Shown here piece after piece: positions 28,490-51,312 of a DNA stretch of 64,000 nt. The translations under genes were made by a program, and so were the position numbers. Source of the stretch: Alphaproteobacteria bacterium (GTDB lineage: Bacteria; Pseudomonadota; Alphaproteobacteria; GCA-2731375); contig CBDDPY010000002.1 in the NCBI GenBank assembly GCA_965232515.1, forward strand, positions 2,944,001 to 3,008,000, written 5' to 3'. Position 1 is the stretch's first letter; each line of letters begins with the position of its first letter. A model generated the notes under the pieces. It was not told where the DNA came from and made no database searches. It was given only the letters and a program-made list of their open reading frames with translations.

Positions 28490-29722
28490 ATGAAAAAAAA
28501 TAAAATAAAAATCCTGTATCTTGACAGCCTTTTATCTTATATAAATCCATCCAGGAACCTAATTCCCAACATACTATCTAAAGCCGGAGTTTTGTATTGT
28601 TACGGACCCGGATATACCGCATCTGATGAACTAAAACGTGGATGCAAAGCATTTTCAGACAAGCATGGTCCCTTCGACATCATTATTTCTAGCATTCACA
28701 TAACATTAACTAGATTTTATCCAAAAGAAAATATTGAAAATAGACTACGACATTACGCGAGATCATTTCCTAACGAAGATTTATTGCATTTTGATGATAT
28801 GTTCGAATTTTTCTTGAAATTCGATGGTCCAAAACTCGCCTTGATGCTTGAAAGCGATCCGTACAATTTCTCGGCAAAACAAATCGATATATTGAATCAG
28901 ATCAACACTTACCTAATCGGTTGGGGTATTAATTCGATAGAATCGAAAAAAAATCTCCGCTTTATTAAGGAAGAATCGTTCGGACAAAGAATTAATGACA
29001 ATTACTTCGAGTTCATTCGAGAGAGCCGCAATCGTGTCGTTGAATTTCATCACTATGTAAGCGAACACGAGCTCTGCTGGACACCGTTGGCGCATCGCTC
29101 AACGCCGTGGTCGATCCTCGGCGCGATGTATCGGGCACGGCGTATTGCCATAGACACTCTAAAGGAAAACGGAATCAGGGCGTCGAAAGCGCACTATGGT
29201 TTTCCATTTGAATTGGCTCGAAGATTTCGGCTCCTTGGCCCCCCGACTCGCACCGAACAGGCAATTGTAAACTACGCATTTCGACGGAAAATGCAGACGG
29301 CGCGCTATGGCTATACCTGCGGGTCCGCCCTGCGCTATCCGATCCGGAAATACTTTGAAATTCCTGCTGCCGGCGCCGTCCTTGTTTGCGATCCCTGCGC
29401 CGGCTTCGAGGATCTTGGTTTCGTCGACGGCGAAAACGCCATCGTGTGCGAACCGGAAGGCGTGCACAAAGTGCATCACCTCCTGGAAAATGAACCGGAA
29501 CGCGCGCAGAAAATAGCGGACCGTGGACGCGCGTTGGTGCTTGATCGACACGTCGTCGGCGCACGAGCAAGGCAACTGCGGGAATGCCTCGAAGCCATTG
29601 TCGATGGCACGTTCGCCGGTTCGCGCTGGAACAAGGGCCGGTTCGAGGTGATCCGCAAGAAGGAACATTCGCCGAATATCCCGACAAGCGCCCAGGCGTC
29701 GGCCGGCCAGATTCCACATTGA
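28490..29722 (+). CDS. CgeB-like / Glyco_trans_1_2 glycosyltransferase
   Basis: C-terminal KYFEIPAAGAVLV..GFVDGENAI..IADRGR..H; AT-rich N-terminus. Confidence 0.75.
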   Translation: MKKNKIKILYLDSLLSYINPSRNLIPNILSKAGVLYCYGPGYTASDELKRGCKAFSDKHGPFDIIISSIHITLTRFYPKENIENRLRHYARSFPNEDLLHFDDMFEFFLKFDGPKLALMLESDPYNFSAKQIDILNQINTYLIGWGINSIESKKNLRFIKEESFGQRINDNYFEFIRESRNRVVEFHHYVSEHELCWTPLAHRSTPWSILGAMYRARRIAIDTLKENGIRASKAHYGFPFELARRFRLLGPPTRTEQAIVNYAFRRKMQTARYGYTCGSALRYPIRKYFEIPAAGAVLVCDPCAGFEDLGFVDGENAIVCEPEGVHKVHHLLENEPERAQKIADRGRALVLDRHVVGARARQLRECLEAIVDGTFAGSRWNKGRFEVIRKKEHSPNIPTSAQASAGQIPH

Positions 29723-31506
29723 CGTCACGTCTTAGAAATCTGTTCATCGATGCACGCCGGCGCCTGGGCCGACGTCTATACATTCTGTTCGCTGTGATGG
29801 CGCTCACCGGTTTTGTGGAAGGTATCGGCGTTGCCTTGATCCTGCCGCTTTTGGGCATGATTGGCATTGGCGAGGGCTACAAGACGACAATCGTCGCGAC
29901 GACGGTCGCGCAGGGCTTTGCCTGGTTCAATTTGCAACCGAATGTCGCCATCCTTGTCGCCATCATCACAGTTGTCTTCGTTTTGCAGACCAGCGTTTTC
30001 ATCGCGCAAAGCTGGCTGGCCGCCAGCCTGCAAAGCCGCTATGTCAAGATTTGGCGCGACGCATTGTTGGCATCCTACCTGCGGTCTGCCTGGTCGTTCT
30101 TTCATCAAAATCGGTCGGGAGAATTGATTAACGGGCTGATTACCGAAACAAATCGTGTCGGCGGGGCCTTTTATCTCCTTAGCCAGCTGATTGCGACGGT
30201 TCTTGTCACGACAATCTATATCGGTCTCGCGCTGATCGTATCGTGGCAGGTCACGGCTGTCCTGCTGCTCGGGGCCGGCGCAATTTTTTTCCTGACCCGC
30301 GGCCTGATGGGTTTTGCCTATCGTGTTGGCGTCGACATCAGTGCACGCGGGCACGAATTGCAGGAAGCCGCGAACGAATTCGTCGGCGGCGCCAAGCTGG
30401 TCAAGGCAACGGCGACGGAGCAGCTTGCCGAAGCGAAGTTCATGACGCTGACCGAACAAATGCGGCCCCTGTTTTTTTGGAGTTCGTTCAACCCGAACGC
30501 CCTGCGCGCGATCTTTGAGCTTACGGCGATAACTGGGCTGTGCGTCCTGCTTGCCGTCGGAACGACGGCGTTTGGCATCGACTCGGCGTCCATTCTGGTC
30601 GTTCTGGCCATTTTTTTGCGGTTGTATCCCAAGCTCTCGGTCGCGCAGCAGAATATGCAACTCCTCAACGTCTACACACCGGCCGTCGAGACGGCGCAGC
30701 GACTGCTCGCCAGGGCCGTCGCGGGGCTCGAGGTCGAGGATCAGCGCGCCCTGCCCCAGAAACTGCTGGAACAACAGGTCTCAGTCGAGGTCGTCGATCT
30801 TTGCGCGGCCTATGACGAAACGGCGGTACTGGACCGGATCAGGTTTGCGATCCCCGCCGGCCACAACGTCGGCATCGTCGGCAGTTCGGGCGCCGGCAAG
30901 TCGACCCTCGTCGACTGCCTATTGCGTCTGGTCGAACCGAGCGCCGGGTACATCCTGATCGGCGGATATAGGCTCAATGATTTGCCGACGCCGGCATGGC
31001 GCCGCGCCATCGGATATGTCCCGCAGGACACCTTTTTGTTCAATGCGTCGATCCGTGAAAATCTCCTTTGGGGCCACCAAGACGTCGGCGACGACCAGAT
31101 GATCGCGGCTGCCCGACAGGCCAACGCGCACGAGTTCATCAGCCGGATGCCGTCGGGCTACGACACTGTGGTGGGCGACCGCGGTGTGCGCCTTTCCGGC
31201 GGCCAGCGCCAACGTATCGGTCTTGCGCGCGCGTTGGTCGGCCGGCCGAAGCTTCTTATTCTCGACGAAGCGACCAGCGCACTCGACTCCGATTCCGAAC
31301 GTGTCGTGTTGGACGCGATTGACAATCTGCGCGGGGAGCTGACGATCATTGTGGTCGCTCATCGACTGTCCACGGTGCGGGACGCCGACAGCATTCTCGT
31401 CCTTGAATCCGGCCACCTTGTGGAACAGGGCACTTGGAGTGAACTGCTGGATGGCGACCGCCGCTTCCGGCGCTTGTGGGACCTGCAGCAGCAAAGCGGC
31501 TCGTAA
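29719..31506 (+). CDS. ABC transporter permease/ATPase (PglK/Wzk/MsbA-like lipid-linked glycan flippase)
   Basis: N-terminal TM domain, GSSGAGKS, LSGGQRQR, ILDEATSALD; TTG start overlapping upstream TGA. Confidence 0.88.
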   Translation: MTSRLRNLFIDARRRLGRRLYILFAVMALTGFVEGIGVALILPLLGMIGIGEGYKTTIVATTVAQGFAWFNLQPNVAILVAIITVVFVLQTSVFIAQSWLAASLQSRYVKIWRDALLASYLRSAWSFFHQNRSGELINGLITETNRVGGAFYLLSQLIATVLVTTIYIGLALIVSWQVTAVLLLGAGAIFFLTRGLMGFAYRVGVDISARGHELQEAANEFVGGAKLVKATATEQLAEAKFMTLTEQMRPLFFWSSFNPNALRAIFELTAITGLCVLLAVGTTAFGIDSASILVVLAIFLRLYPKLSVAQQNMQLLNVYTPAVETAQRLLARAVAGLEVEDQRALPQKLLEQQVSVEVVDLCAAYDETAVLDRIRFAIPAGHNVGIVGSSGAGKSTLVDCLLRLVEPSAGYILIGGYRLNDLPTPAWRRAIGYVPQDTFLFNASIRENLLWGHQDVGDDQMIAAARQANAHEFISRMPSGYDTVVGDRGVRLSGGQRQRIGLARALVGRPKLLILDEATSALDSDSERVVLDAIDNLRGELTIIVVAHRLSTVRDADSILVLESGHLVEQGTWSELLDGDRRFRRLWDLQQQSGS

Positions 31507-31511
31507 GCAGC

Positions 31512-33059
31512 GTGTTCGAGATATCGGCCGTTGTAGCCATTTCGTTGCTGGTATTTTTTTTCGCACGCCTTTGGCCCAACTGGCAGACGCGCAACAGAGG
31601 TTGCGATGCCTTCTACTTCCTGCTCACCGCCGATGCGTTCCGCCGAGATCGAAAGCTTCCTATCGTCCTGCCCCCGGTGTATCTGCTGGAGTCGAACGAG
31701 CAATGGTATCCACCGGGATTTTCGGTTTTCCTCGGACTATTCCCGCAAAATATTCTCGACCGTTATCACTGGCTCATCTCCAGCCTGCTCGACAGTACCG
31801 TCCTGATTGCCGCGGTTATCTGGGCCGGCTTGCAGTTCGGACCGCCGGCAGCGCTCATGGTCGGCATGAGTTATGCCATCGCCTCGGTCTTGGTGATCGA
31901 GTACAGCAGCCTGACTTCAAGAGCTCTCGCGGTTCCGCTGTTCGCGCTTTTCCTGTTATCAGCCTTCGGCTGGACCGCGGGCAGTTATCTCGCACTGGGC
32001 TGCGCCATCATCGCTGGAACCGCTCTTTTCTTCACGCACAAGCTGTCGATGCAGCTGCTTTGGTTCCTAGTTCCTTTTCTCGCCATCTGGCAAGCCGACC
32101 CAGTATGGCTCGTTCCGCTTGCGGCCGCTTATGCCAGTGCATGCGCTGTTGCGCCGCGTTTGTTCGTGAAAATCCTACGTGCTCATTGGGATATCGTGAC
32201 CTTCTGGAACCGGAACTGGCGGTATTTGGGCGCGCATCAGATCAAGAATTCTCCCGTCTATGGGGACGGCCGTCCGAACGGATTTCACCGACATGGCGAT
32301 CTTGGCAGAGCCGTTCTGAACCAGGCACGAATGCTGCTACAATTCAACCCCTGGCTTTTTGCGCTTCCGATCACACTCTGGCAGTTCGAAACGCTGTCGC
32401 CAGTGCTGCAGTTCTTCGTCATCACCTCCATTGCCGCCCTAATCTGGGCCACGATCACACTCTATGTCGGCCCGCTGCGGTGTCTCGGCGAAGGAACGAA
32501 ATACATCAAATATGGTTTGCCTTTCTCGCTCCTCGTGGCGATCGCATTGCCGCATAGCATGGCGCCGCAAGATGCCTGGATAGGCTGGGTCGCTTTCTAT
32601 ATCAGTGCCGGATCGCAGTTGGCCCACTACATTTGGACGGTCGCAAGGCAACGGAAATCGTCGCACCTGACCGGAATAATGTCTCCGGACTTGATGACAA
32701 TTATCGGTCACTTGCAGAAATCGCCAGATGCGCGCGTTTTGTGCCTGCCAACGAACCTCGCCGACGCTGTTGCCTATCATTCGGGCAAACCCGTCCTGTG
32801 GGGAACACACGGATTTGGCTTTCGCTGGGCGGAACCTTTTTTCCCTGTGCTACGGCAGCCTCTACCGAAATTCGTCGAGCAATATGGCCTAACTCACCTG
32901 CTGTTCGACAGCAAGTTCACATCGCATAAAGAATTGCAGCTTGTGCCTCGGGATGAAGACATGAATGTCGGTGACTTTTGCCTAACAACGCTTGAAAAGA
33001 CCGCCGGCACGTCTGCCGTACTGGCCCCGCCCGTCATGACCTTGAAGACAACGTCGTGA
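31512..33059 (+). CDS. Multi-pass membrane protein, GT-C-fold glycosyltransferase-like
   Basis: TM1 ending in R, loop GCDAFYF then YPPGF, many TMs, small C-terminal soluble domain (YGLTHLLFD); no WWDYG. Confidence 0.6.
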   Translation: MFEISAVVAISLLVFFFARLWPNWQTRNRGCDAFYFLLTADAFRRDRKLPIVLPPVYLLESNEQWYPPGFSVFLGLFPQNILDRYHWLISSLLDSTVLIAAVIWAGLQFGPPAALMVGMSYAIASVLVIEYSSLTSRALAVPLFALFLLSAFGWTAGSYLALGCAIIAGTALFFTHKLSMQLLWFLVPFLAIWQADPVWLVPLAAAYASACAVAPRLFVKILRAHWDIVTFWNRNWRYLGAHQIKNSPVYGDGRPNGFHRHGDLGRAVLNQARMLLQFNPWLFALPITLWQFETLSPVLQFFVITSIAALIWATITLYVGPLRCLGEGTKYIKYGLPFSLLVAIALPHSMAPQDAWIGWVAFYISAGSQLAHYIWTVARQRKSSHLTGIMSPDLMTIIGHLQKSPDARVLCLPTNLADAVAYHSGKPVLWGTHGFGFRWAEPFFPVLRQPLPKFVEQYGLTHLLFDSKFTSHKELQLVPRDEDMNVGDFCLTTLEKTAGTSAVLAPPVMTLKTTS

Positions 33060-33859
33060 GACAGGCCATAAACGCCGACGGTGCCGAACTGCGATTTGGC
33101 TTTGGCGCCAACTGGCAGCGGTTCGTGAAGCACCTAAGCGATGCACGCATTGCCCGAGCTGAAAGCTCGTTACAAGAGATGTTGCGCATACAGAATCTCA
33201 ATGGCATGCGGGTACTGGATGCGGGATCTGGGTCGGGCTTGCTCAGCCTTGCAGCGTGCCGGCTTGGCGCGGATGTCTATTCTTTCGACTATGACCCCGA
33301 CTCCGTTGCCTGCACGAGATTTATCAGAGACCGATACGCATATGGCAATGGGCATTGGACAATCAAACAGGGATCCGTGCTCGACGGCGCGTTCATAGAC
33401 AAGCTAGGCAAGTTCGACATCGTATATTCGTGGGGAGTCCTGCACCACACTGGCGACATGCGCCTGGCTATCGATACCGTCTCACAGGCCGTTGCTCCTG
33501 GCGGGACCTTGATGCTGTCGATCTACAACGATCAGGGGCTGCTTAGCCGATTCTGGCGGATCGTTAAGATACAATTCAACCGGAACCGCCTGAGCCGGGT
33601 CATTACCATCGCAATTTTTGCCCCCTATCTCGTCGGTCTGCGTTATCTCGTGAGATTGACCCGCGGCCGCGTCGAGCTCGAGCGCGGAATGAGCCTCTGG
33701 TACGACATGTTAGATTGGCTAGGCGGCTATCCATTCGAAGTCGCACGCCCCGAAGAAATCGTCGACCAGCTCCACGCCCTAGGCTTCGCGCTGACCAAAA
33801 TCCGCACCGTCGGCGGCCGTAACGGCTGCAATGAGTTCGTCGCGCGGAAATTCGCCTGA
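33056..33859 (+). CDS. Class I SAM-dependent methyltransferase (UbiG-like)
   Basis: FGFGANW, LDAGSGSG, YSWGVLHHTG, DWLGGYPFE. Confidence 0.88.
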   Translation: MRQAINADGAELRFGFGANWQRFVKHLSDARIARAESSLQEMLRIQNLNGMRVLDAGSGSGLLSLAACRLGADVYSFDYDPDSVACTRFIRDRYAYGNGHWTIKQGSVLDGAFIDKLGKFDIVYSWGVLHHTGDMRLAIDTVSQAVAPGGTLMLSIYNDQGLLSRFWRIVKIQFNRNRLSRVITIAIFAPYLVGLRYLVRLTRGRVELERGMSLWYDMLDWLGGYPFEVARPEEIVDQLHALGFALTKIRTVGGRNGCNEFVARKFA

Positions 33860-33881
33860 GGCATTCAGCAGTCGTATATCG

Positions 33882-35066
33882 ATGGTCCGGGTCCTGCATC
33901 TCATCACAAGCCTGGAAACCGGCGGTGCCGAGATGATGCTGTACAAGTATCTGCAAGGAGCAGACCGCATGCGCACCGAAAACACCGTCGTCTGCCTTGG
34001 CAGCGACGGCACCCTCGCGGAACCGATCCGCCAGCTTGGAATAGATGTCCATACGATCCGACTGAAAAAGCGGTTGAGCGCCGTGGTCGCCTTAATTCGT
34101 CTCGCGATTCTTCTGCGCCGGGAGCAGCCGCAGATCCTGCAATCTTGGTTGTACCATGCCGACCTTATCGGCCTGCTGCTCGGAAAACTGGCCGGAGTTT
34201 CTAAAATTGTCTGGAACCTACGTTGCTCAAATACGGGCACTATCTACACAAAAGGAACGGGCGCCCTGCTGTTGAAATCGCTCGCCATGCTTTCAGGCCG
34301 ACCGGCCGCCGTTATTGTGAACTCCGTTGCCGGACGGATCGAGCATGAACGTCTCGGCTACAAGCCGACGCGATGGGAACTCCTGCCAAATGGATTTGAC
34401 CTGGATGCATTCAATCCGAGCCCTGTCGCCCGCGCGCGATTGCGTCAGGAACTTGGGCTAGATAGCAATGCCTTTTTAATCGGGCTTGTAGCCAGATTCG
34501 ACCCGCTGAAAGATCAGGAGAACTTCCTGCGCGCGGCGGCAAAGCTCCAGCGGACACGTAGGAATGTTCAATTCGTCATGGTCGGTCGTGGCATTGTCAA
34601 GAGGAACGCCGAACTTTCGGCCCTGATCGAGCAGACCGGAATTAATGCCACCGGGCTGCATCTTCTAGGCGAACGCCGCGATATCGCGAACATCACCGCC
34701 GCGCTCGACATCGCGACCTGTGCGTCAAATGCTGAGGGATTTCCGAACATCGTCGGCGAAGCCATGGCATGTGGCGTCCCATGTGCCGTCACCGACGTCG
34801 GTGACGCGGCCATCATAGTTGGCGAGACAGGCCGTGTGGTGCCGGCCAAAGATCCAGTCGCGCTGTCTTCAGCTTTCGCATCGCTGGTCGACATTGGCGA
34901 ACAGGCCCGCACGCGGTTGGGCTGCGCAGCACGGACGCGAATTGCCGAGCACTATAGCCTTGCCGCCATCTGTAAACGCTATGACGACCTTTACGAGGAC
35001 CTGGCCGACCCACACTCGGAACATCGGAGCTGGCATCGCGCCCAGCAGGTCAGCGGCAAGATCTGA
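33882..35066 (+). CDS. GT4 glycosyltransferase
   Basis: LHLITSLETGGAE, VARFDPLKD, EGFPNIVGEAMACGVP. Confidence 0.92.
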   Translation: MVRVLHLITSLETGGAEMMLYKYLQGADRMRTENTVVCLGSDGTLAEPIRQLGIDVHTIRLKKRLSAVVALIRLAILLRREQPQILQSWLYHADLIGLLLGKLAGVSKIVWNLRCSNTGTIYTKGTGALLLKSLAMLSGRPAAVIVNSVAGRIEHERLGYKPTRWELLPNGFDLDAFNPSPVARARLRQELGLDSNAFLIGLVARFDPLKDQENFLRAAAKLQRTRRNVQFVMVGRGIVKRNAELSALIEQTGINATGLHLLGERRDIANITAALDIATCASNAEGFPNIVGEAMACGVPCAVTDVGDAAIIVGETGRVVPAKDPVALSSAFASLVDIGEQARTRLGCAARTRIAEHYSLAAICKRYDDLYEDLADPHSEHRSWHRAQQVSGKI

Positions 35067-35190
35067 CGGCAAGACGCAGTTCTTGCCGCTGACGTTTGAC
35101 CAAGTCTCATACGCCGCCTTACGCGTACGTTTTTGTGGATATTCGCCTAACCGCGTTGACAGTCCGTAGTGGCAATTAACCTGCAAATCC

Positions 35191-36204: not shown

Positions 36205-36244
36205 GACGAGCACACCCATGCCCGGTATGACGGCCTGAACGGAT

Positions 36245-42759: not shown

Positions 42760-42775
42760 TGCAGCCGCAATGCCA
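42760..42775 (-). promoter_or_regulatory. Possible sigma-54 promoter (TGGCATTGCGGCTGCA)
   Basis: GG-N10-GC spacing with TGGCA, about 60 bp upstream of wzz. Confidence 0.3.
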
Positions 42776-42962
42776 AAATGTAGTAATTCCTGCCGAACTA
42801 TTTGGGAAACCCCGCACAAAGGACCAACTTCACATGTCGGATGCAACAAAGAATTCTTCGTGATAATTGCCAAGAATTTCCAAGTTCGTTGGTTCCCTAG
42901 GCAAAAGCCAATTGTCACAGTCGACGCAAAACACATCGCCAGCTGACATAAGCGTTAGCGGC

Positions 42963-45900
42963 TCAATCCAACAACCGTGACCAGTCCTGGGCGATGTTGT
43001 CGAGGTTGCCTTCCTCCATCAAGCCGTAGAGGCGGTTCGAGATTGACAGCATCTGGCCGCCGTCGCGGGTGAGCGGGCGGAATGCGAAGGTGCCGCGGCG
43101 GCGGGTCGAGTTGGTCAGCAGCAATTCGAACGGGATCGAGATGAAGAAGCCCTTGTCGAAGCTGCCCTCGCCGAAATCCTCCGCCGACACGTCGGTGAAC
43201 GTCGCCCAGCCTCCAAGCCGCATACCCGACTCGAAAGACCGCGACAGAACGAACTGTGCGCCGCGGTCACCGGCCAGGAATTGGCCCGCATGTACTTCGC
43301 CCGTGAGACCGAACCATGGAAACTTGTAATAGACGTTCAGATGCCCGGTTGTCACCTTGTAATCGAGGAAATCGAAGCGCTGGTCGAAGTCGCGCTGTCG
43401 CACCCGATTGATGTCCACTCCGATTGCCAGCCGTGAGCCGAACGGCCGGTACAGCACCTCGGCGCCGACGCCGGCGAACATCTCCTCCAACAGCCCGGCC
43501 GAGACCCGGGCCGACCAGTCGGGGAACGGTAGGAACAGGTAATCGGCCTGCAGGCGCACGATGTTGCCATCATCGCCCTGCTGCAGATATTTCACGATAT
43601 CGCTGCGCACCCGCGGCAGCACGCTGTCCGATTCCAGCGTCAGCTTGTCGAAATTGTTGGTGATGTTCTTGCCGATGGTGCCGGTGACGCGCAGGCCCCG
43701 GTAGAGCTCGGCCTCGGCCGTCGCCGCCAGCCAGATCTGATAGATGTAGAAGCCGTCCGGTCCGCCGATCTGCTGTCTGAGCGCCGGGCGGACGTTCCAG
43801 CTCAACGTCGGATAACGTTTCGGGTTGCGAATAGCGTCCTTGGGAATCGATCCCTCCGGCCGCAGCGCCGCGACCGGGCCCTCGATCTTGGCGTTGGCCC
43901 AGACCTCCTCGGGGCTGCCGTTGCGCGCCACGGCGGCCTCCAGATCGTGCCGGAACAGGGTGACTCGAGCGATCTCGAGGCCCGCGTTCAAAGTCACGAC
44001 CTCGATCTCCTCGACGCTGTCCGGGACGTGATTGGCCACGGCGCGAGCGGCACGCCCGGTATTGCGCGCGAACTGGCGGAACTTGCCGGGCGTGACGAAG
44101 ATCGTCGCCTTGTACCTGGTCAACTCGAAGGCATCGACGCCAAAGCCCTGCTCGCCCAACTCATCGAAGACCTTCTCGGCGACCGCCCGCTTTTCGTCCT
44201 GGCTCAGATCGGGCACCAGTTCCTCGATGATCGGCGGCCGCACGGCGTCCTGTCCGGCCGTCAGACCGGTCGCCACGGCCTGCCGTCGCAGCGTCACCCG
44301 GGACGCTTCGACGCCCGCCTTCAGGCCAACCAGCACCACCTCATCGAAAGGCTCGGGCGCGGAATCGGCGACCAGCCGGGCCGCGGCCACATAGTCCTCG
44401 CGCGAGCGGGACCGCTCGTCGGACAGGTACACCGTGGCCTGGCTGTCGGAGAACTCGAACGACTCAAGCTCGAAGCCCTGCGCGGCCAGACCATCGAACA
44501 GGGCATCGACCTGCGCGTCCCGTTTCACATCGTCGCGTTCGACAACGACGCGATCGACTTCGACGCCGGCATCGATATGAACGATCTCGAAGCGCTCCAC
44601 CGGTGTCGGCAGCGCTTCCAGCAGCACCTGCGCCGCCCGTCGGTCGCGCGCGCCGCGGGCGGCGGCCACGCCGGCAACAACGACTTTCACCTGCCGGTGT
44701 GAGATATCGAGCGATTCGACCTCGTAGCCCTCGGCTTCCAGGCCATCGAACAGATAGTCGACGATGGCCGACTGCTCGACCTCACGCCGATCTATGGTGA
44801 TCCGGCGCTCCCGGCCGTCTTCATCGGGCTGCACCAGGACCACGCGCTCGATTGCGCCGGGAATGGCGGCGACTACGGATTCGGCCACGTCGGCCACATG
44901 CGCCTGCGGATCATCGGCGACGTCGCGGGCAAGATAAATGCGCGCCTCGCTGTCACTCAGTTCGATGGTTTCCGCATCCAATCCCGCCGCCTCAAGATTG
45001 TCGTATAGATCGTGCGCTGCAATGACATGGACATCGGTGTCTTCGATGTCGCGCGGCACGGCCGGATCCGGCGACGGCGCATCGTTCTCAGGCGTCGGCG
45101 ATGCTGGCGCCGCTTCGACAGGCGCGCCGGGCGCCGGCTTTTCGCGGATCTTCAGCTTCGGCGGCGGATCGTCCAGCTTCGGCAGGCCCAGCGCTTTGAC
45201 GTTGCTGCGCAGCGAGGCGCGAAACATGAACTCGTTGCCACGCTCGTAGGCCGCCGCCATTTCCAGCCACTCGAACGGCCGATAGTTCAAACCGAAATTA
45301 AACCGCGTGCTCTGCTCGAACCTGTTGCCCAGTGGTTCGCTCTGATAGTCATTGCCGTCGTACTCCAGCTTTAAGGTCAAGCCACGGACAGGCGTGTACC
45401 ACTCGACACCGCCGAACAGACCCACGGTCTCGCCCGAAAAGAAATTGTCGAAGATCAGCTCGCCACCCTGCCCCCCTCGACCACCTCGCGTTTCAAACCG
45501 ATCGGAAATAGAGGTAAACGGGTTGCGAATCGTGCCGCCAGCCCCCAACAATCCCCAGCCCATGCCGAAACTAAAATCGAAATCGTACCACCGCTTGCTC
45601 ATGACGACGTACTCGCCGGAGAATTGTCCGGTGCCGAGACCATCCTGCACACCGACGGCGATCTGCGGCACGTATTTGGACTCCGGCCAAAGCATCAGCT
45701 TCAGGTCAGCGCCGCGGTCTTTGAACGACTGATCCCCACTGAACTCCGGGATGTCGGAAAACAACCGGTTGCGGATGTCCGTATAGCGGAACGTGCCCTC
45801 GAGAAATGGCAGAATCTGGAACGTGACGTAGTAACGGCGATAGGGGTCGACGAACGAGGCGCCGACATCCAGCGTGCCGTCCTCGTGAAAACGCGCCGTA

Positions 45901-46079
45901 CGGGTCTGCAACAGCCCGACGCCGCCGAAATCATTCGCCGACGGCTTGTAGTAAGGTTCCCGATCGGCGGTCTGCGCCGATGCGATCGCCGTAAGAGACG
46001 TCGAACCCAGGGCGATAGCGACAACAGAAGCCCACACGTGTCTGCCGCGCATACACATCAGATGGCTAGCCGATCGCAC
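42963..46079 (-). CDS. yjbH: YjbH/GfcD outer-membrane glycan-export protein, enlarged
   Basis: DFGGVGLLQTRTAR, GTGQFSGEY, LPRVRSD, EEMFAGVGAE, QRDF, FGEGSFDKG, PLTRDGG. Confidence 0.92.
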   Translation of the reverse strand: MRSASHLMCMRGRHVWASVVAIALGSTSLTAIASAQTADREPYYKPSANDFGGVGLLQTRTARFHEDGTLDVGASFVDPYRRYYVTFQILPFLEGTFRYTDIRNRLFSDIPEFSGDQSFKDRGADLKLMLWPESKYVPQIAVGVQDGLGTGQFSGEYVVMSKRWYDFDFSFGMGWGLLGAGGTIRNPFTSISDRFETRGGRGGQGGELIFDNFFSGETVGLFGGVEWYTPVRGLTLKLEYDGNDYQSEPLGNRFEQSTRFNFGLNYRPFEWLEMAAAYERGNEFMFRASLRSNVKALGLPKLDDPPPKLKIREKPAPGAPVEAAPASPTPENDAPSPDPAVPRDIEDTDVHVIAAHDLYDNLEAAGLDAETIELSDSEARIYLARDVADDPQAHVADVAESVVAAIPGAIERVVLVQPDEDGRERRITIDRREVEQSAIVDYLFDGLEAEGYEVESLDISHRQVKVVVAGVAAARGARDRRAAQVLLEALPTPVERFEIVHIDAGVEVDRVVVERDDVKRDAQVDALFDGLAAQGFELESFEFSDSQATVYLSDERSRSREDYVAAARLVADSAPEPFDEVVLVGLKAGVEASRVTLRRQAVATGLTAGQDAVRPPIIEELVPDLSQDEKRAVAEKVFDELGEQGFGVDAFELTRYKATIFVTPGKFRQFARNTGRAARAVANHVPDSVEEIEVVTLNAGLEIARVTLFRHDLEAAVARNGSPEEVWANAKIEGPVAALRPEGSIPKDAIRNPKRYPTLSWNVRPALRQQIGGPDGFYIYQIWLAATAEAELYRGLRVTGTIGKNITNNFDKLTLESDSVLPRVRSDIVKYLQQGDDGNIVRLQADYLFLPFPDWSARVSAGLLEEMFAGVGAEVLYRPFGSRLAIGVDINRVRQRDFDQRFDFLDYKVTTGHLNVYYKFPWFGLTGEVHAGQFLAGDRGAQFVLSRSFESGMRLGGWATFTDVSAEDFGEGSFDKGFFISIPFELLLTNSTRRRGTFAFRPLTRDGGQMLSISNRLYGLMEEGNLDNIAQDWSRLLD
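43940..45014 (-). repeat. Four tandem ~84-85-aa domain repeats inside YjbH
   Basis: Starts HDLYDNLEAAGL (45014), DYLFDGLEAEGY (44759), DALFDGLAAQGF (44507), EKVFDELGEQGF (44177); each continues A..V...P..E......G.E..R. Confidence 0.85.
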
Positions 46080-46104
46080 CGCTCCCAGTCGCCCGACCGC
46101 GCGA

Positions 46105-49068
46105 TCAATCGCGCGAGATTACGGCCAGTGATGCCGCCGTCACCGCGAGTTGGCTGACGATCGACGCGCCTTCGCGCACAATGGTCAGCAGATCCAGCGG
46201 CACCGGATCCTTCGGCACGACAATCGTGCTGCCTGGTGGAATCTGCACTGGATTGAAGTTCCACGGACTGAGCGCCAATGGCTCGGCCTCGCCGTTCGGA
46301 TAGACGACGAACACGCGATCCTCGTCCGCCGACGATTGATAGCCGCCCGCTTGACGGATGTATCGATCCGCCGTCGCGCCAGCACGGAACTGCACGGCAC
46401 TGGGGTTCAGCACGTCACCAATGACCGTCACGAAGTTCGGCCGTTTCGGAACAAAGATCCGGTCGCCGGGTTCCAGGACCACATCGAGTTCCGGCTTCAC
46501 TTGCAGCACCGTTGGATCGGCCTCGATGACGACGCGCCCCAGCGCCTCGACTGATTCCAAACGCCCGGACAGCTCCTGAAGGGCTAGAATTGCTGTCGGA
46601 TTCACGCCTCGCTGTACGGCAGCCACCGCCAGCGCCGAATTCAGTTCACGCGCAGCTCGCTGAAAGCCGAGTTCCTGCTCACGCTTCACCCGTTCGCGGG
46701 TGAAGATGGCGCCGTAGGGATAAGCCTGGGCTGTAACGCCACCGGCCCGCGCGATCACTTCTGACAACCGCTCGCCACGCCGGATTTCGTAAAGGCCCGT
46801 ACGGACGAACTCGCCGACCAGCAGCACCGGTCCGGTATCGCGGTCGGTAAAGACCGGGTTGAAGCGGATCACGTCGCCGGGCCCGACGGCGACGTTGTCG
46901 GCGCCGAGGCTCGCCAGATTTACCAGGCCACGCGAAGTGTCGGCGGCACCGCGGATCGAGTCGGGCGTATAGCGCGACACTTCGACCCGTGTCAGGTCGA
47001 CCTCGCGCGCCAGACCGCCGGCAACCGCGATGATCGACGCAACGGGCGCCTCGCCGACCACCGGATAGGCGCCCGGCCGCCGCACTTCGCCGTTGACGGT
47101 GACGACATGTTCCAGCGCCAGCGGCAACAGATCACCGAAGCGGTCGAAGATCTCGGGACACTCGCGCCGCTTCCCCTCGGCCAGTCCATCGGCCGTCTCA
47201 ATCGTCCGAACGGCGCCGGCGAAGCGGCCCGACGACGTCGTCGCCACGATGGCTGCCAGATCCTTTAATCCCTGGCAGACTTCCTCGCGGGCATCGATCA
47301 ACTGCCGTTGTTCGTCGTCAGGTTGGCGGTCAGATTGTTGTTCGCGCGCCGGCGGCTCGCTGGTTGCGTTGGCCCCAGCCAGAAACCGTTGCAGTGTCGA
47401 AAGACCACCGCCCGACGCGGTACCGTCCACGCTCTGCGCGGTCTGATTCTCGGCGGGCCGCCGCTCGTCTTCACCGTCGCCCCGTCGCACATCCCGACGA
47501 ATCTGCTCGGACTCAATGCCCTGTCTGACAATGTCCTGCACGTCTTGGGACGACAGATAGCGGATATCCTCAGCCGACAGCACGATCAGCCGGTCGCCGT
47601 CACGCAGTCTGAAGTCCTGCTTGCCATCTAGGATGTCGAACAGATTGACGGGGAAGAACCGACGCGCGTGGGTCTGTGGATCAGTCGTCTGCAGTACCCC
47701 AAACAGCAGATAAGGATCTGGCCGAAACGTGTTGGGACTCCCCACCAGGCTGCCGAGCGTCTGCGCGCTGGCGAGCGACCGCCGCCCCGGCACCCGGACA
47801 TGGCCATCGATCTCGACGCCGCCGAGCTGAATGTCTTGTTGGCGCGTCACTAGCACGATGTCGCCACCGCGGACAATGCGGTTCGGGTCGGTATGCTCGA
47901 TCAGCCGCTCGCTGCCGGTCTCGTCGAAGGTCAGGTGCATGAATTTGATGCCCTGCGGCCGGAGGCTGCCGCCGGCCAGATCCACGACCTCACCCACTGT
48001 CATGCTGTCGCGGCCGTCGGGCAGCTCGTAGATCGCGGGCCGCTTGACGTCGCCATTGACCGCCACGGTGGCGCCGATCGCCGGCACGATGATGCGGTCG
48101 CCGTCGAACAGGCGCAGGTCGTGCATGGCGACGCCGGAATAGAGCAGGTCATAGGCGTCGAGCCAGAAGATCTTGTCGCCGCGCTGCACGTGAATGCGGC
48201 GCACACTGCCGGTCTTGCGAATGCCGCCGGCGAGCGAAATAGCATCGACGATGCTCGACAATGCCGTCAGCTGCATCAAGCCGGGTTCGCGCACCTCGCC
48301 GACCATGCTGACAGTGACGTTGCGGATCGCGCCAAGGGCGATGAAAACCTCGGTGTTCAGGCGCGAGGTCGCCGTGCGCGCCTCAATCTCGCGGCGCAGG
48401 CTGCCAAAGCTGCGGCCGGCCGCGGCGATCGGCGCCCATTGCGGAATCAGCAGCCGGCCTTCCCGATCGACGCGGCTAATGAAGGTGTTGTTGTCCTGAC
48501 CGTAGAATGTGACGACGAGCTCATCGCCGACGCCAAGCACATAATCCGGCGGAATAGCGCCCGTGCCCAACGCCTCGGGACGGATTGCCTGGAAGAACGT
48601 GTCGTAGCCGTATTGCAGCAGTACTTCTCGGGTGCGGAGGCAATAGTCACGCTCAAGCCGCGAGAAGGCCTCGATCAGGTCGATATTGCGAGCCTCCTCC
48701 GGCGGCAGCTCGCCATTGCAGTAGCGCCGTACCAGCACGCGCTGCTCCGGCGTCAGCTGGCCGGTCCGAAGCCGCAGCTCGCTGACGGCTGCTTCAATCT
48801 CCGTAGGCGGCACCAAGCGGCGCGCGCCGTCTGCTCCTTTTTGCCGCGAACTGTCGAGCCGCGACGGCACCTCGCGCGGCAAAGCCTCCAGAGCGCCGCT
48901 GCCTTGCAGATCCTCCATTTGCCGGAGCAAAGCGCCAACGGTACCGAGCGAAGTCAGGCCGTCCTGCGCCATTATGGTGTCGGTTGTCGCTGCAATCCCC
49001 GCGGCCAACGTCACGGCGCCAACCAGAGCCGGCAGGCTGCTTGCTGAAACGGCGAGCCTATGCCACAT
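46105..49068 (-). CDS. Polysaccharide export protein with multiple SLBB domains (KpsD/WbfF-like)
   Basis: YGYDTF, DYVLGVGDEL, repeated V.G.V..PG.Y...AGG beta-grasp motifs, C-terminal PGSTIVVP plus amphipathic helix. Confidence 0.88.
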   Translation of the reverse strand: MWHRLAVSASSLPALVGAVTLAAGIAATTDTIMAQDGLTSLGTVGALLRQMEDLQGSGALEALPREVPSRLDSSRQKGADGARRLVPPTEIEAAVSELRLRTGQLTPEQRVLVRRYCNGELPPEEARNIDLIEAFSRLERDYCLRTREVLLQYGYDTFFQAIRPEALGTGAIPPDYVLGVGDELVVTFYGQDNNTFISRVDREGRLLIPQWAPIAAAGRSFGSLRREIEARTATSRLNTEVFIALGAIRNVTVSMVGEVREPGLMQLTALSSIVDAISLAGGIRKTGSVRRIHVQRGDKIFWLDAYDLLYSGVAMHDLRLFDGDRIIVPAIGATVAVNGDVKRPAIYELPDGRDSMTVGEVVDLAGGSLRPQGIKFMHLTFDETGSERLIEHTDPNRIVRGGDIVLVTRQQDIQLGGVEIDGHVRVPGRRSLASAQTLGSLVGSPNTFRPDPYLLFGVLQTTDPQTHARRFFPVNLFDILDGKQDFRLRDGDRLIVLSAEDIRYLSSQDVQDIVRQGIESEQIRRDVRRGDGEDERRPAENQTAQSVDGTASGGGLSTLQRFLAGANATSEPPAREQQSDRQPDDEQRQLIDAREEVCQGLKDLAAIVATTSSGRFAGAVRTIETADGLAEGKRRECPEIFDRFGDLLPLALEHVVTVNGEVRRPGAYPVVGEAPVASIIAVAGGLAREVDLTRVEVSRYTPDSIRGAADTSRGLVNLASLGADNVAVGPGDVIRFNPVFTDRDTGPVLLVGEFVRTGLYEIRRGERLSEVIARAGGVTAQAYPYGAIFTRERVKREQELGFQRAARELNSALAVAAVQRGVNPTAILALQELSGRLESVEALGRVVIEADPTVLQVKPELDVVLEPGDRIFVPKRPNFVTVIGDVLNPSAVQFRAGATADRYIRQAGGYQSSADEDRVFVVYPNGEAEPLALSPWNFNPVQIPPGSTIVVPKDPVPLDLLTIVREGASIVSQLAVTAASLAVISRD

Positions 49069-49097
49069 CTAACGTCTCCCAAGGATTGCTGGCAGCC

Positions 49098-49778
49098 ATG
49101 CCGACATTGAAGCCGAAGTCCATGATGCGCAGAACCGTGCTGTTTGGCGGGACTGGTTTGATTGCGTCGGGCTGCATCGAAAGTCCCGTCATCTCAAACT
49201 TCGCGAACGTCATGCGGTCCGCGGCGTTTGGTGGCCCCGAACTTCCCCTCAAGCGCGAGGCGGTGACGAAACTACCATATGCCTCGATGACTGCAAGGGT
49301 CGGCCGCGGACCGCAGGACTTTCTCGTGCTTGGCAAAATCGATGGCCGCGACCAGCATTGGGTAGCGTCCGACAAGTCGATTTTAGTGATCCGCGGCGGC
49401 CGCCTGGTGCGCACAGTTGGCTTCAACGAAAACCTGCTCGGCACAGTCGATGTCGGCGAAGATCCCGTCGACAAGCAGTTGCATGTCGTCGAGAACGGCG
49501 CCCGATACACGCGCCTGGTCGATCTTGACTTCAAGCAGAGCTACGGCGTGCCGATCGATTCGACCTTCGAAGTGCTGGGCGACGCCAAGATCGATATCGT
49601 CGAACTGACGTTCGACACCATCGTCGTGCGCGAGCGCAGTTCAGCGCGTACATTGCAATGGGACTTCGAGAACGTCTACTGGGTCGACCCCGAGGACGGC
49701 TTCGTCTGGCGCAGCCGGCAGCACTTCACGCGGTCGCTGCCACCGGTTTCATACGATGTGCTGAAGCCTGCCGGATAA
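49098..49778 (+). CDS. yjbF: YjbF/GfcB family lipoprotein
   Basis: Lipobox ASGC, LPYASMTAR, GRLVRTVG, FENVYWVD..GFVWRSRQH. Confidence 0.85.
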   Translation: MPTLKPKSMMRRTVLFGGTGLIASGCIESPVISNFANVMRSAAFGGPELPLKREAVTKLPYASMTARVGRGPQDFLVLGKIDGRDQHWVASDKSILVIRGGRLVRTVGFNENLLGTVDVGEDPVDKQLHVVENGARYTRLVDLDFKQSYGVPIDSTFEVLGDAKIDIVELTFDTIVVRERSSARTLQWDFENVYWVDPEDGFVWRSRQHFTRSLPPVSYDVLKPAG

Positions 49779-49804
49779 CACCGGCCTGACTCGCGGCGAG
49801 CGAC

Positions 49805-50083
49805 CTAGTTTGTTGATGTCGCGGTGACGGCGCTGCCGCTGGTCGCATCGTCGTCGTCATCGTCGGTCGACACCGAGACCACGACCGCCGCGGCGGCTGC
49901 GGCAATGGCCGCCAGTGTCAGTGTGCCCGTGGTCAGGGCAACACCGCCGCGCGGCGCCCGCGCGCCCTGCCCGGCCGCAACGCCATAACCGGTCTGCTCG
50001 GCCTGGGATTGCGCACGCAGCGACGTGGTCGGGACGGCCGCAGCGGCAATCAGCAATACGAGGACAAAACTCAGTGTACGCAT
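49805..50083 (-). CDS. Small secreted GfcA/YjbE-like protein, copy 3
   Basis: Signal peptide LRA|QSQ, TGYGVAAG, Ala-rich hydrophobic helix, STDDDDDD, Ser/Thr tail. Confidence 0.75.
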   Translation of the reverse strand: MRTLSFVLVLLIAAAAVPTTSLRAQSQAEQTGYGVAAGQGARAPRGGVALTTGTLTLAAIAAAAAAVVVSVSTDDDDDDATSGSAVTATSTN

Positions 50084-50308
50084 AAATGGCAACTCGGTTG
50101 TGATCTCGGCTTGTCTTGGATGCAGTGATCCGACCGGTCAAGCTTGCAACATAACGGCAAAAAAGCAAACTGCCGTAATCTCGCGAATGGCGCTCCATAG
50201 CTCAAGCTCACGCCCCCTTAGCCACCCTGGCGTTGTGCCTAAAGGTCAGTCGCATCTAGTTTGTTGGGAACCCAGCGACCAAACGCGCCGGAACGTTAGG
50301 TAGAGAAT

Positions 50309-50590
50309 CTAGTTCGTTTGCGGCGCCGTAGACGTACTCGTGCTGGTCGACACGTTGTCGTCGTCGTCATCGGAGACAGTCGCGATGGCAACGGCGATTG
50401 CCGCGGCGATTCCGGCTGCGGATACAGCCGCGCCCCAAGTCAACCCTGGCGCCAGGCCTTCCTGACCGGCGGTGACGCCAGCCGCGTTGCCCGTGCCAGT
50501 TTTGGTGCTTTGGGATTGCGCCTGAAGCGCGCTGGATGACACCGCCAAAAGAAAAGCGGCACAGATTGCCGCCGACTTAGCCCTCGTCAT
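50309..50590 (-). CDS. Small secreted GfcA/YjbE-like protein, copy 2
   Basis: Signal peptide LQA|QSQ, TGTGNAAGVTAGQEG, hydrophobic helix, SDDDDD, STSTSTST tail. Confidence 0.78.
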   Translation of the reverse strand: MTRAKSAAICAAFLLAVSSSALQAQSQSTKTGTGNAAGVTAGQEGLAPGLTWGAAVSAAGIAAAIAVAIATVSDDDDDNVSTSTSTSTAPQTN

Positions 50591-50676
50591 TGCCCATCCC
50601 CCGGCAGGCAGCTCGAGATACGCCGATCTGCCCACCAAACAAACATTGGAACACGACCGCCAAGCGGCCGTCAAAA

Positions 50677-50955
50677 CTATGGAGTGGTCTGAGTTGCCGT
50701 CGACGTAGCAGTGGTCGAATCGTCGTCGTCGTCCGAGACCGCAGCAATCGCAATCGCCAAGGCCGCCGCGGCTGCAACACCACCGACAACGGCAGTCGTC
50801 GACAGGCCCGCGATGCCCCCTTCCTGACCAGCGGTCACGCCCGCAGCCTCACCGGTGCCGGTCTGGGCTGCTTGAGACTGGGCGAACGATGCCGCCGGCG
50901 CTGCAACAAGCGCCGAAACGAGACCGATGGCAGTCAAAGTCTTTTTCACGATCAT
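50677..50955 (-). CDS. Small secreted GfcA/YjbE-like protein, copy 1
   Basis: GGAGG RBS, signal peptide SFA|QSQ, TGTGEAAGVTAGQEG, hydrophobic helix, SDDDDD, STTATSTATQTTP tail. Confidence 0.82.
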   Translation of the reverse strand: MIVKKTLTAIGLVSALVAAPAASFAQSQAAQTGTGEAAGVTAGQEGGIAGLSTTAVVGGVAAAAALAIAIAAVSDDDDDSTTATSTATQTTP

Positions 50956-51297
50956 GTTTGAAGGACCTCCAAAAAAACGCGCTGGAAAGTTAACGGGTTT
51001 ACCATCACCGATCAAGGTGAAATGCCCTTGGGAAACCAGTCTTTACCCCACCTTCCTTCATCCAAATTACGCACATTGCAAGGTAGCGCCGGACATGGAA
51101 CCGATTCGGCACATAGATAATCGCGTGAAACCTACGTTTCAGCAAATACCGATGCAAGAACCTCACAAGTCGTGTACCGGAATAATTACCGCCTGTTGCT
51201 TTCGTGCAACATTTGCGGCAAACCTCTGAAAGCGTTGGGCATCTGGTTGCGACCCCCGTTCAGCAGATTGCCACGACGATGTTATCTATTGAGTCGA

Positions 51298-51312
51298 TTA
51301 AATAACCGTTAA
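51298..51312. promoter_or_regulatory. CtrA-box TTAA-N7-TTAA
   Basis: TTAA ATAACCG TTAA in the divergent gap; GANTC (GAGTC) at 51291-51295. Confidence 0.6.

Follow-up and report, generated by a model that had tools for sequence, protein, structure and literature searches.

The locus considered here raises the question of whether a set of glycan-synthesis genes, a set of Yjb/Gfc-type export genes and three genes encoding small secreted proteins (here called mini-proteins) belong to one system, and of what the mini-proteins do in it. The genes lie together in a stretch of 64,000 nucleotides (the window) of an Alphaproteobacteria bacterium (GTDB lineage GCA-2731375), which covers positions 2,944,001 to 3,008,000 of the forward strand of contig CBDDPY010000002.1 (assembly GCA_965232515.1). 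For the role of GfcA/YjbE in group 4 capsules and in the yjbEFGH exopolysaccharide the locus is a good test bed, not an answer, as it holds a defined mini-protein family with three diverged copies and an export module separable from strain-specific chemistry. An earlier note on this DNA had proposed one undescribed system, in which a glycan is transferred onto the mini-proteins to give a glycopeptide coat. Our analysis divides the region in two units: it is probably a conserved export module of the YjbEFGH/GfcABCD type beside a mobile, strain-specific glycan cassette. The division rests on gene identities, folds, synteny and co-occurrence, from which we infer all the biochemical steps discussed below.

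The host genome has 7.39 Mb and 65.5% GC. The window shows a GC trough of 0.47-0.60 across ~8-51 kb, and both of its flanks are at 0.65-0.70. Genes were mapped from lists of open reading frames (ORFs) and codon-position GC, and the long ORFs were compared with Pfam and NCBIfam. All the components listed by the earlier note are present where it had placed them, according to Pfam and structure models. The first unit (unit A, 38.2-51.0 kb) contains the following genes:

38181..39392, minus strand, GT4 glycosyltransferase travelling with the export module (Pfam, synteny)
39571..40443, plus strand, methyltransferase (Pfam)
40445..41626, minus strand, TM393, a polytopic membrane protein of 393 residues with a GT-C-type fold (predicted structure)
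41741..42700, minus strand, Wzz-type chain-length determinant, a polysaccharide co-polymerase without kinase domain (PF02706)
42963..46079, minus strand, YjbH/GfcD-family outer-membrane protein of 1038 residues (PF06082)
46105..49068, minus strand, class-2 OPX protein of 987 residues (Poly_export, SLBB x7, GfcC_C)
~49125..49778, plus strand, YjbF/GfcB lipoprotein (PF11102, lipobox)
49805..50083, minus strand, mini-protein 3, 92 residues (ORF, alignment)
50309..50590, minus strand, mini-protein 2, 93 residues (ORF, alignment, PF11106 E 0.019)
50677..50955, minus strand, mini-protein 1, 92 residues (ORF, alignment, PF11106 E 0.046)

YjbH was found in 24 of 33 family genomes, in its long form where the contigs allow (open frames mostly of ~920-1120 residues). 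For the gene order, 18 stretches of DNA belonging to 11 relatives were searched by tblastn with 37 proteins of the window (at least 40% query coverage, E ≤ 1e-5). Relatives G031 and G032 show yjbF, OPX and yjbH beside the genes for DLH, GHMP kinase, TPR and ETF-QO, as in the window, with the mini-protein genes abutting yjbF; the genes beyond yjbH vary from genome to genome. Strong full-length mini-protein matches (E ≤ 2.5e-19) are present in 17 of the 33 genomes, with three copies only in the window genome and two in G032 and G022. TM393 is found in 12 of the 33 and adjoins Wzz in four genomes (the window's, G023, G206 and G174). In G023, G022, G031, G206 and G174, homologues of the GT4 at 38181..39392 (47-62% identity) are located next to yjbH or not far from it.

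A search at the level of the order added nothing, since the order consists of this family only. In a class-wide sample of 251 genomes, nine showed a mini-protein match (E ≤ 1e-8); six of the nine belong to other families, five in number. Five of these six loci were examined (matches covering at least 30%; the weakest match, G225, was left out), and in four of the five the mini-protein gene is located at most 3 kb from yjbF. G206 shows the order TM393-Wzz-GT4-GT4-YjbH-OPX-YjbF-mini-DLH-GHMP-TPR-ETFQO, and G174 the same order plus DUF3108. G065 contains a bare mini-YjbF-OPX-YjbH module on another backbone, with no sugar genes adjoining. In G193 (L074:10331-15369), the mini-protein and YjbF genes are 2.7 kb apart with IS-type transposases between them, and the module appears to have decayed, as neither OPX nor YjbH turned up in the 40 kb retrieved; in G055, no Yjb genes were found near the mini-protein gene. 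Outside the family, f24 and f143 likewise show syntenic yjbF-OPX-yjbH beside DLH-GHMP-TPR-ETFQO. The sugar regions flanking the module differ between genomes: G206 has a different, PMT_2-like GT-C (E 4e-5) adjoining the module, and no TM527 or ABC homologue was found there. This synteny across the family and into other families does not fit a single undescribed system, and neither does the distribution of the ABC exporter and the GT-C enzyme TM527, which lie in the separate low-GC cassette (unit B, 13.8-38.2 kb):

13796..38218, plus strand, low-GC glycan-synthesis cassette (Pfam, GC, homologous gene sets round GT-C in 19 loci)
29719..31506, plus strand, ABC half-transporter of the MsbA/HepA/PglK type (ABC_membrane and ABC_tran)
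31512..33059 (ORF from 31476), plus strand, TM527, a GT-C-fold glycosyltransferase of an unannotated family (fold match)
33056..38218, plus strand, distal cassette part: methyltransferase, GT4, methyltransferase and AsnB-type amidotransferase (Pfam; homologues adjoin GT-C in other phyla)

The cassette starts at 13796, outside the interval of the earlier note's finding (29719..51312). Pfam assigned to it an oxidoreductase/acetyltransferase, two DegT aminotransferases, an epimerase, two AsnB-type amidotransferases, a radical-SAM/SPASM protein, two formyltransferases, methyltransferases and GT4s, in addition to the ABC exporter and the GT-C. Among the 33 family genomes, TM527 is present in one, the window's own. 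A scan of one genome per species found GT-C relatives in 19 loci (L035-L053). Those of proteobacteria include two Bradyrhizobium, a Coxiella endosymbiont, Kiloniella, Stellaceae, other alphaproteobacterial metagenome-assembled genomes, Magnetococcales, Burkholderiales, and Gamma- and Deltaproteobacteria; the others include Lentisphaerae, Planctomycetes, Elusimicrobia and Methylomirabilota. Neighbours within 10 kb of the GT-C were identified by tblastn of the window proteins (E ≤ 1e-6, at least 40% coverage). A homologue of the radical-SAM/SPASM protein was found in 15 of the 19 loci, usually directly upstream of the GT-C; AsnB, GT4, formyltransferase, methyltransferase and DegT/epimerase homologues also recur, and 12 of the 19 show a full-length ABC homologue. 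Furthermore, 47 ORFs not named by tblastn, of 111 ORFs in seven of the loci, were scanned with Pfam. L048 contains an ABC exporter by Pfam, and in L042 the gene immediately before the GT-C encodes a Wzx-type flippase instead; these 47 ORFs gave no match to Wzy_C, Wzz, OPX or a priming transferase. The flippase is thus the most regular membrane-protein partner of the GT-C, directly adjacent in several loci and within 10 kb in most.

The Yjb-side proteins behave otherwise. YjbH, OPX, YjbF, Wzz, TM393 and the mini-proteins gave tblastn matches within 10 kb in none of the 19 loci, and the mini-protein hidden Markov model (HMM), run on all six frames of these loci, found nothing at E ≤ 10, while the same HMM recovered the three mini-proteins of the window. 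The cassette neighbours are kept and the Yjb genes are absent, so cassette and Yjb module are independent units.

The ABC half-transporter of the cassette is likely, from its family matches, to be a flippase for a lipid-linked glycan. Its NCBIfam scores were 370 bits with HepA_fam (cut-off 725), 316 with MsbA and 211.8 with PglK (NF050066, cut-off 1000). The earlier note had called it PglK-like; the transporter type stands, and the PglK equivalog was ruled out by its score.

TM527 has 515-527 residues, depending on the start. It shows no Pfam or NCBIfam match and no match to PF02516 (STT3) at E ≤ 10. The WWDYG motif defines the STT3/PglB/AglB oligosaccharyltransferase family, and no WWD is present in the TM527 translation. 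The protein has 188 homologues; among the 120 listed, none has a Pfam domain and the few named ones are "hypothetical". Alignment of homologues shows the invariant residues D32, Y66-P67-P68, R137, H176-K177, Q181, G431 and H433. The AlphaFold (AF2) model, built on an alignment with 35 of the 120 listed homologues, has a mean predicted local distance difference test (pLDDT) of 93 and a predicted TM-score (pTM) of 0.91, and its periplasmic domain has only ~110 residues. Foldseek gave 26 PDB matches at E ≤ 1e-3, exclusively GT-C enzymes, with STT3/AglB/PglB on top (E ~1e-6); for STT3, PglB and AglB, E ranges from 1.4e-6 to 1.4e-4 and TMq from 0.49 to 0.60, with PglB at E 1.1e-5. VIA, a structure aligner independent of Foldseek, gave Z scores of 19.5 for Pmt4, 19.4 for STT3B, 18.3 for AglB, 18.2 for ALG12, 17.7 for ArnT and 17.1 for PglB. 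A search of the TM527 family profile against the PDB sequences found 0 matches at E ≤ 10, and for a homologue the Atlas lists only unnamed clusters, plus a minority of PMT_2/STT3 labels on distant ones. The model thus predicts a GT-C fold, in agreement with the earlier note, which had described a GT-C transferase lacking WWDYG. Because PMT, ArnT, ALG12 and the oligosaccharyltransferases tie in Z, protein-, lipid- and glycan-directed enzymes match equally and the acceptor class is not separated; a protein acceptor is conceivable on this model. The two GT-C families of the locus, TM527 and TM393, are without annotation, and that of the cassette may be an unrecognised type of polymerase, ligase or transferase.

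TM393 shows no Pfam or NCBIfam match either. It has 101 homologues, 36 of which were used in the alignment for a model with pLDDT 90.8. By VIA its top 20 structural matches are all GT-C enzymes (Z 7.6-14.7, with ALG12 at 14.7, ArnT at 13.2 and Pmt at 13.0), and below them Z falls to 6.4; with Foldseek there was no match at E ≤ 1e-3. The earlier note had named this gene Wzy. What holds is a polytopic protein adjoining Wzz; it has no family match and a GT-C-type fold, and its adjacency to Wzz, the sole support, makes a polymerase paired with Wzz plausible but unproven. The Wzz protein (319 residues) scores 29.1 bits with PF02706 (cut-off 25.5), has no kinase domain, and shows a C-terminal transmembrane segment at 290-308 by hydropathy scan and an N-terminal hydrophobic stretch read by eye from the translation.

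YjbH matches its family over the full length (PF06082, 765.9 bits against a cut-off of 24; model positions 1-356, 279-358 and 266-657) and has a signal peptide without Cys. Four tandem copies of its middle domain (~90 residues) lie at ~354-437, 441-522, 525-602 and 632-715, in accordance with the four-repeat YjbH of the earlier note; the single copy in the Pfam YjbH model is a point of departure. The repeats were mutually detected by phmmer (independent E values from 4.6e-4 to 8.7e-14), while self-comparison with BLASTP found none. The OPX protein contains Poly_export (PF02563, 40.4 bits), five stretches of SLBB (PF10531), two of SLBB_2 (PF22461) and GfcC_C (PF06251, 32.1 bits), which is the Poly_export-SLBB-GfcC architecture of class 2; it has a signal peptide without lipobox and a C-terminal hydrophobic helix. 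Its GfcC_C match is the only one in the genome, so there is no separate YjbG, and the OPX practically amounts to a fusion of a Wza-like protein with YjbG/GfcC. YjbF, whose gene is divergent from that of OPX, scores 145.2 bits with PF11102 (cut-off 25.9) and has the lipobox IASGC of a lipoprotein. Fused class-2 OPX, four-repeat YjbH, three mini-proteins in the YjbE position and Wzz without kinase are the variant features of this module.

The three mini-proteins are paralogues of 92-93 residues with 41-53% identity, and the gene for mini-protein 1 shows GGAGG 9 nt before its ATG. All share the same build: the signal peptide, which ends A|QSQ, is followed by a stretch rich in Gly and Ala, a segment of strong hydrophobicity, a run of five or six Asp, and a Ser/Thr tail. 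A profile search with six seeds against 1.84 billion proteins gave 66 representative clusters, nearly all of 80-130 residues and matching from end to end. In an alignment of 52 sequences (the three window copies and 49 of the 66 representatives), A25, Q26, Q28, G33 and G35 are nearly invariant, with a core A|QSQ..KTG.G. All 52 contain a 19-residue window with a Kyte-Doolittle (KD) hydropathy of at least 2.04. The tails (median 21 residues) have 47.5% Ser and Thr, compared with 19% before the hydrophobic segment, with medians of three Asp and Glu and no Lys and Arg; their composition is conserved and their sequence is not. By the positive-inside rule, an acidic tail free of Lys and Arg behind a hydrophobic segment is unlikely to be cytoplasmic, which speaks for export of the entire chain. 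The mini-proteins align collinearly with K-12 YjbE and GfcA (sequences from the annotated record), which together with synteny bears out the kinship to GfcA/YjbE and the tie to YjbF/YjbH that the earlier note had seen. As small proteins with a signal peptide and a tail rich in Ser and Thr, whose genes neighbour yjbF/gfcB, they are, judged from sequence, a small unannotated family resembling YjbE/GfcA in build and gene position. In genus g3, open frames of ~280-320 residues (G023:C3:715-939, G005:C51:95368-95607, G009:C193, G004:C35 and others) match positions ~23-94 of the mini-protein profile with E of 1e-8 to 1e-12; these may be a longer protein carrying the mini-protein module, or a compositional match.

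A complex of mature YjbF with mature mini-protein 1 was modeled with a YjbF alignment of five relatives. The score was 0.58 (runs 0.58, 0.55 and 0.61), against 0.01 for the best control, and the runs share at least 38% of their contacts; the pLDDT of mini-protein 1 is only 43-45. The mark for this score is reached by 116 of 157 solved complexes and two of 215 mismatched pairs, and at or below 0.60 by 18 of the 157 and both mismatches. Binding of the mini-proteins to YjbF is thus weakly predicted.

From these elements the following course can be proposed. Unit B, the horizontally mobile cassette, would make a heavily tailored amino/uronic-sugar repeat on undecaprenyl-PP (a WecA-like gene precedes the window), which would be flipped by the ABC exporter and then processed in the periplasm by the cassette's own GT-C; the TM527 step would most likely be polymerisation, ligation or branching of the glycan. 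In unit A, presumably fixed at one site of the chromosomal backbone, the Wzz-type co-polymerase and TM393, as the putative polymerase, would act in the inner membrane. The class-2 OPX, predicted to span the periplasm, would stand in for separate Wza and YjbG proteins, and together with the lipoprotein YjbF and a putatively two-barrel YjbH with four periplasmic repeats it would carry the polysaccharide to the surface. The outcome would be a strain-variable capsule or O-antigen-like coat. The mini-proteins would be Sec-exported and occupy the YjbE/GfcA position. It is possible, at somewhat less than an even chance, that YjbF, a homologue of GfcB and LolA-like following Larson et al., handles the mini-protein and delivers it to YjbH, where it would serve as an anchoring or otherwise accessory subunit.

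Other courses were weighed against this one. The glycopeptide coat of the earlier note, in which the ABC exporter flips the glycan, TM527 acts as an oligosaccharyltransferase loading the Ser/Thr tails, and YjbH displays the product, draws on the GT-C fold of TM527 with protein oligosaccharyltransferases as its best Foldseek matches, on its place beside the flippase, on tails that are Ser/Thr-rich, acidic and probably periplasmic, and on the location of all these genes within 22 kb. The comparative-genomics check which that note had itself proposed, for co-occurrence of GfcA arrays, GT-C and expanded YjbH, lends it no support: in none of the 19 loci do mini-proteins or YjbH lie within 10 kb of the GT-C; within the family TM527 is confined to one genome of 33, whereas mini-proteins (17) and YjbH (24) are widespread, and TM527 was not found in the fetched DNA of the four other families with mini-yjbF. 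Because this co-occurrence is lacking, the step from TM527 to the mini-proteins is disfavoured. PMT, ArnT and ALG12 tie with the oligosaccharyltransferases (VIA Z 17-19.5), and TM527 has neither WWD motif nor STT3 Pfam match, so that we consider this model very improbable. Nor is its central idea new, as the role of YjbE/GfcA-type proteins as glycan carrier or anchor is an old published speculation: Larson et al. (2021) suggested that the Ser/Thr-rich GfcA might be O-antigen-modified and directed to GfcD (PMC8592465). In a more general form of that speculation, the tails would be O-glycosylated by another enzyme (TM393, a Wzy_C protein encoded elsewhere or a PMT-like GT-C), the hydrophobic segment would anchor the chain, YjbF would act as chaperone and release would occur via a lateral gate of YjbH. 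Agreeing with it are the LolA-like fold of GfcB, which interacts with GfcC and GfcD (PMC8592465), the lateral gate modelled in the GfcD C-barrel by Fruet et al. (2024) (PMC11494523), the tail composition kept while the sequence varies, the YjbF complex prediction (weak, in spite of the control), the two Wzy_C genes elsewhere in the genome and the PMT_2-like GT-C beside the module in G206. Against it, such a modification is not known from any organism, and glycosylation is nowhere mentioned in PMC8592465; in G065 the four genes of the module stand by themselves, no glycosyltransferase lying close to them, and the gate was modelled for lipid-anchored chains, a lipid anchor accounting for it equally well (PMC11494523). 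We regard this general carrier model as distinctly improbable. The same grade applies to the proposal that YjbE-like mini-proteins are the missing protein anchor of Gfc/Yjb-type capsules, in place of lipid A; YjbF would then ferry the hydrophobic helix over the periplasm, the helix would enter the outer membrane through the YjbH lateral gate, and the acidic Ser/Thr tail would hold the polysaccharide covalently, joined by a periplasmic GT-C or a Wzy_C-type transferase. Insertions in yjbE-yjbF have been linked to capsule anchoring phenotypes, with no mechanism given (PMC8117528). Glycosylation of the tails by some enzyme may or may not take place.

Two further readings leave the tails unmodified or concern the polymer itself. 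Saidi et al. (2022) noted that the GfcD/YjbH N-barrel matches the amyloid exporter FapF and floated secretion of amyloidogenic peptides (PMC9603273), so that unfolded or amyloid-prone mini-proteins could leave through the FapF-like N-barrel and tether the polysaccharide non-covalently. GfcA is predicted to be natively unstructured, in a description of YjbH-GfcD as the largest multi-barrel family (PMC8346858); the low pLDDT of mini-protein 1 in the complex runs and the Gly/Ala/Val-rich hydrophobic segment point the same way. That segment, with its KD value of at least 2.04 in all 52 sequences, nevertheless resembles a membrane segment more closely than it does secreted amyloids of the typical kind, and no repeat units were seen in the mini-proteins, which makes this reading quite unlikely. 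Alternatively, the cassette would make an LPS (lipopolysaccharide) O-antigen, ligated to lipid A-core by a WaaL encoded elsewhere, the neighbourhood would be an insertion hot-spot, and the Yjb module would serve for no more than a minor form of the capsule or for some unrelated polymer. The LPS-type genes of the left flank and upstream (WecA-like, KpsF, GmhA and UDP-GlcNAc 2-epimerase), the two Wzy_C genes elsewhere, the occurrence of the cassette without any OPX in 19 other genomes and the differing variable regions at the site among relatives are in line with it. Against it, several families keep Wzz, TM393 and a GT4 together with yjbH, and these genes border on the variable region, as in the Vibrio K-antigen loci. 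The E. coli group 4 capsule is itself an O-antigen (PMC8592465), so both readings overlap; as a separate explanation we hold the O-antigen to be unlikely.

Several results weigh against the division into export module and cassette, or against parts of it. What the product is, whether lipid or protein anchors it and what the two GT-C proteins do were all inferred, and protein oligosaccharyltransferases are the top Foldseek matches of TM527. The mini-proteins fall outside Pfam YjbE (PF11106): two score 14.4 and 15.6 bits against a cut-off of 27.9 and mini-protein 3 shows no match. Only three of the 52 family members match PF11106 at E ≤ 0.1, and hhalign of the mini-protein family with K-12 YjbE gives a probability of 56.7% over 18 columns. 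The YjbF complex score falls in a range in which most passes are wrong, save for interactions already likely beforehand. G003 (94% complete) and G007 (98%) have a mini-protein and YjbH was not found in them, and nine YjbH-positive family genomes show no strong mini-protein match. A phyletic association of mini-protein and YjbH in the family (15 of the 17 strong-mini genomes with YjbH, versus 24 of 33 overall) was rejected as too weak and confounded by kinship and incomplete genomes. Finally, in genus g3 (Pfam on 32 ORFs of three of the eight fetched loci) the mini-protein gene lies at the backbone in the order UDG, ETF-QO, TPR, two unnamed genes, DUF3108 and mini, with yjbF-OPX-yjbH on other contigs. 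Since the mini-protein gene lies within 3 kb of yjbF in four of the five genomes of other families, we read the mini-protein as the positional YjbE and the g3 arrangement as derived.

RNA-library contigs cover mini-protein 1 and ~165 nt upstream in four of four runs (one study; strain 95-99% identical), which counts for the reading preferred here, and one contig of 1410 nt spans 49994-51396; such contigs can contain DNA, and this cover stands without a silent control stretch, which counts against it. Mini-protein 2 is fully covered by an X1 contig and mini-protein 3 partly by X1 and X2 contigs. Gaps at 48900-48983 in all runs and over most of yjbF in X2, X4 and X6 are uninformative. A transcript start at 51122, where the X2 and X4 contigs end and adapter-like letters follow, was not called, as it comes from one study only. 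Among runs X18-X24, organism label B is attached to those in which the stretch is complete and to several poly-A RNA runs, and label A to the four RNA runs above; the bacterium may be present in samples labelled for other organisms. Two features lie beyond the mini-protein genes:

51298..51312, no strand, TTAA-N7-TTAA (CtrA-type) box (pattern scan)
51314..52189, plus strand, DUF3108 protein, divergent from the mini-proteins (PF11306)

The CtrA-type pattern TTAA-N7-TTAA occurs twice in the window versus 0.10 expected, and none of 100 shuffles reached two. The earlier note had suggested CtrA timing of the coat; the box exists, and it is placed at the DUF3108 start, ~80 nt before the probable signal-peptide start of that gene and 343 nt from the ATG of mini-protein 1, so CtrA timing of the mini-proteins is not indicated. 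The second box (58523-58537) precedes an SLT-domain transglycosylase ORF (58545-60419) by 8 nt. Between 49700 and 51420 the sigma-70 promoter scan found 0 sites and the two terminator-like sites, against 2.0 expected, are not meaningful. A divergent DUF3108 gene recurs beside the mini-protein gene, also in genomes that have yjbF at another place (L057:6735-7658; L061:6637-7584; L076:11126-11890), and lies next to it in G023, G005 and G174.

With respect to the surroundings, phage-type genes (a Rad52/DUF968 fusion and Siphovirus Gp157; 9669-11266, minus strand) lie at the left edge of the low-GC island; no tRNA marking island borders was found in the window, and no integrase was identified among the window ORFs scanned. 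The core flank (upstream DNA and window positions 1-8636) contains LPS-type genes, namely KpsF, CysD/CysNC, GmhA, UDP-GlcNAc 2-epimerase, MBOAT, an LPG_synthase_TM protein and GT2, and a WecA-family transferase gene is located ~5.7-6.7 kb before the window (-6748..-5711, minus strand); the island therefore sits in a surface-glycan neighbourhood. In whole-genome searches, AAA_31 (Wzc-type), LMWPc, Polysacc_synt (Wzx) and Wzy_C (WaaL-type) gave 0 matches inside the window, which agrees with the absence of Wzc/Wzb and WaaL reported by the earlier note. The closest LMWPc match is 62 kb off, the two Wzy_C genes of the genome lie outside the window (C2, 4.07 and 6.55 Mb), and a canonical Wzx/Wzy_C/Wza/Wzc-like/Bac_transf cluster is located at 6.55-6.58 Mb, with its Wzc-like gene at 6.57 Mb. 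Contigs C3 (5.5 kb) and C4 (10.9 kb) have 42-46% GC, compared with 65.5% in the chromosome, and may be foreign or contaminant DNA.

Among the known systems, E. coli gfc/yjb and the Vibrio K-antigen loci come nearest. The window resembles E. coli gfcABCDE-etp-etk and yjbEFGH in its small Ser/Thr-tailed signal-peptide protein, YjbF/GfcB lipoprotein, GfcC domain and YjbH/GfcD. It differs from E. coli gfc in the absence from the window of Etk/Etp (Wzc/Wzb), the autokinase and phosphatase found in group 1 and 4 capsule loci. Its GfcC is the C-terminal domain of the 987-residue OPX instead of a separate protein, and its YjbH has four middle domains, whereas the 658-position Pfam YjbH model has the middle domain once and E. 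coli YjbH has ~698 residues. There are three mini-protein genes versus one, with the motif A|QSQ..KTG.G absent from E. coli YjbE, and yjbF is divergent from OPX, in contrast to the single operon of E. coli. The OPX shares with class 2 (KpsD type) the arrangement Poly_export - SLBB(n) - GfcC plus C-terminal helix, but its seven SLBB-type stretches (5 SLBB and 2 SLBB_2) exceed the one to six given for class 2 by Saidi et al. (2022), who defined these proteins and report OPX genes near GfcD/YjbH homologues in 4-5 class 2A and 18-19 class 2B cases (PMC9603273).

As with Campylobacter PglK/PglB, an ABC half-transporter adjoins a GT-C-fold enzyme in a sugar-tailoring cluster, and PglB aligns with TM527 at a VIA Z of 17.1; unlike that pair, the PglK equivalog and the STT3 Pfam match fail, WWD is missing and the periplasmic domain has ~110 residues, and a kinship specific to PglB is not indicated, as PMT, ArnT and ALG12 match TM527 equally well. 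The K-antigen loci of Vibrio parahaemolyticus and V. cholerae O139, compared from their published description, keep a separate yjbG and differ in gene order and taxon; the variable cassette of the window uses an ABC flippase and a GT-C. Their conserved flank comprises yjbH-yjbG-yjbF, wbfE, kpsD/wbfF and wzz/wzc, and it is in this layout, with conserved export genes (KpsD-like OPX, Wzz-like and yjbFGH) flanking a serotype-variable sugar region (PMC7829505), that they are like the window, where the export module adjoins a strain-specific cassette.

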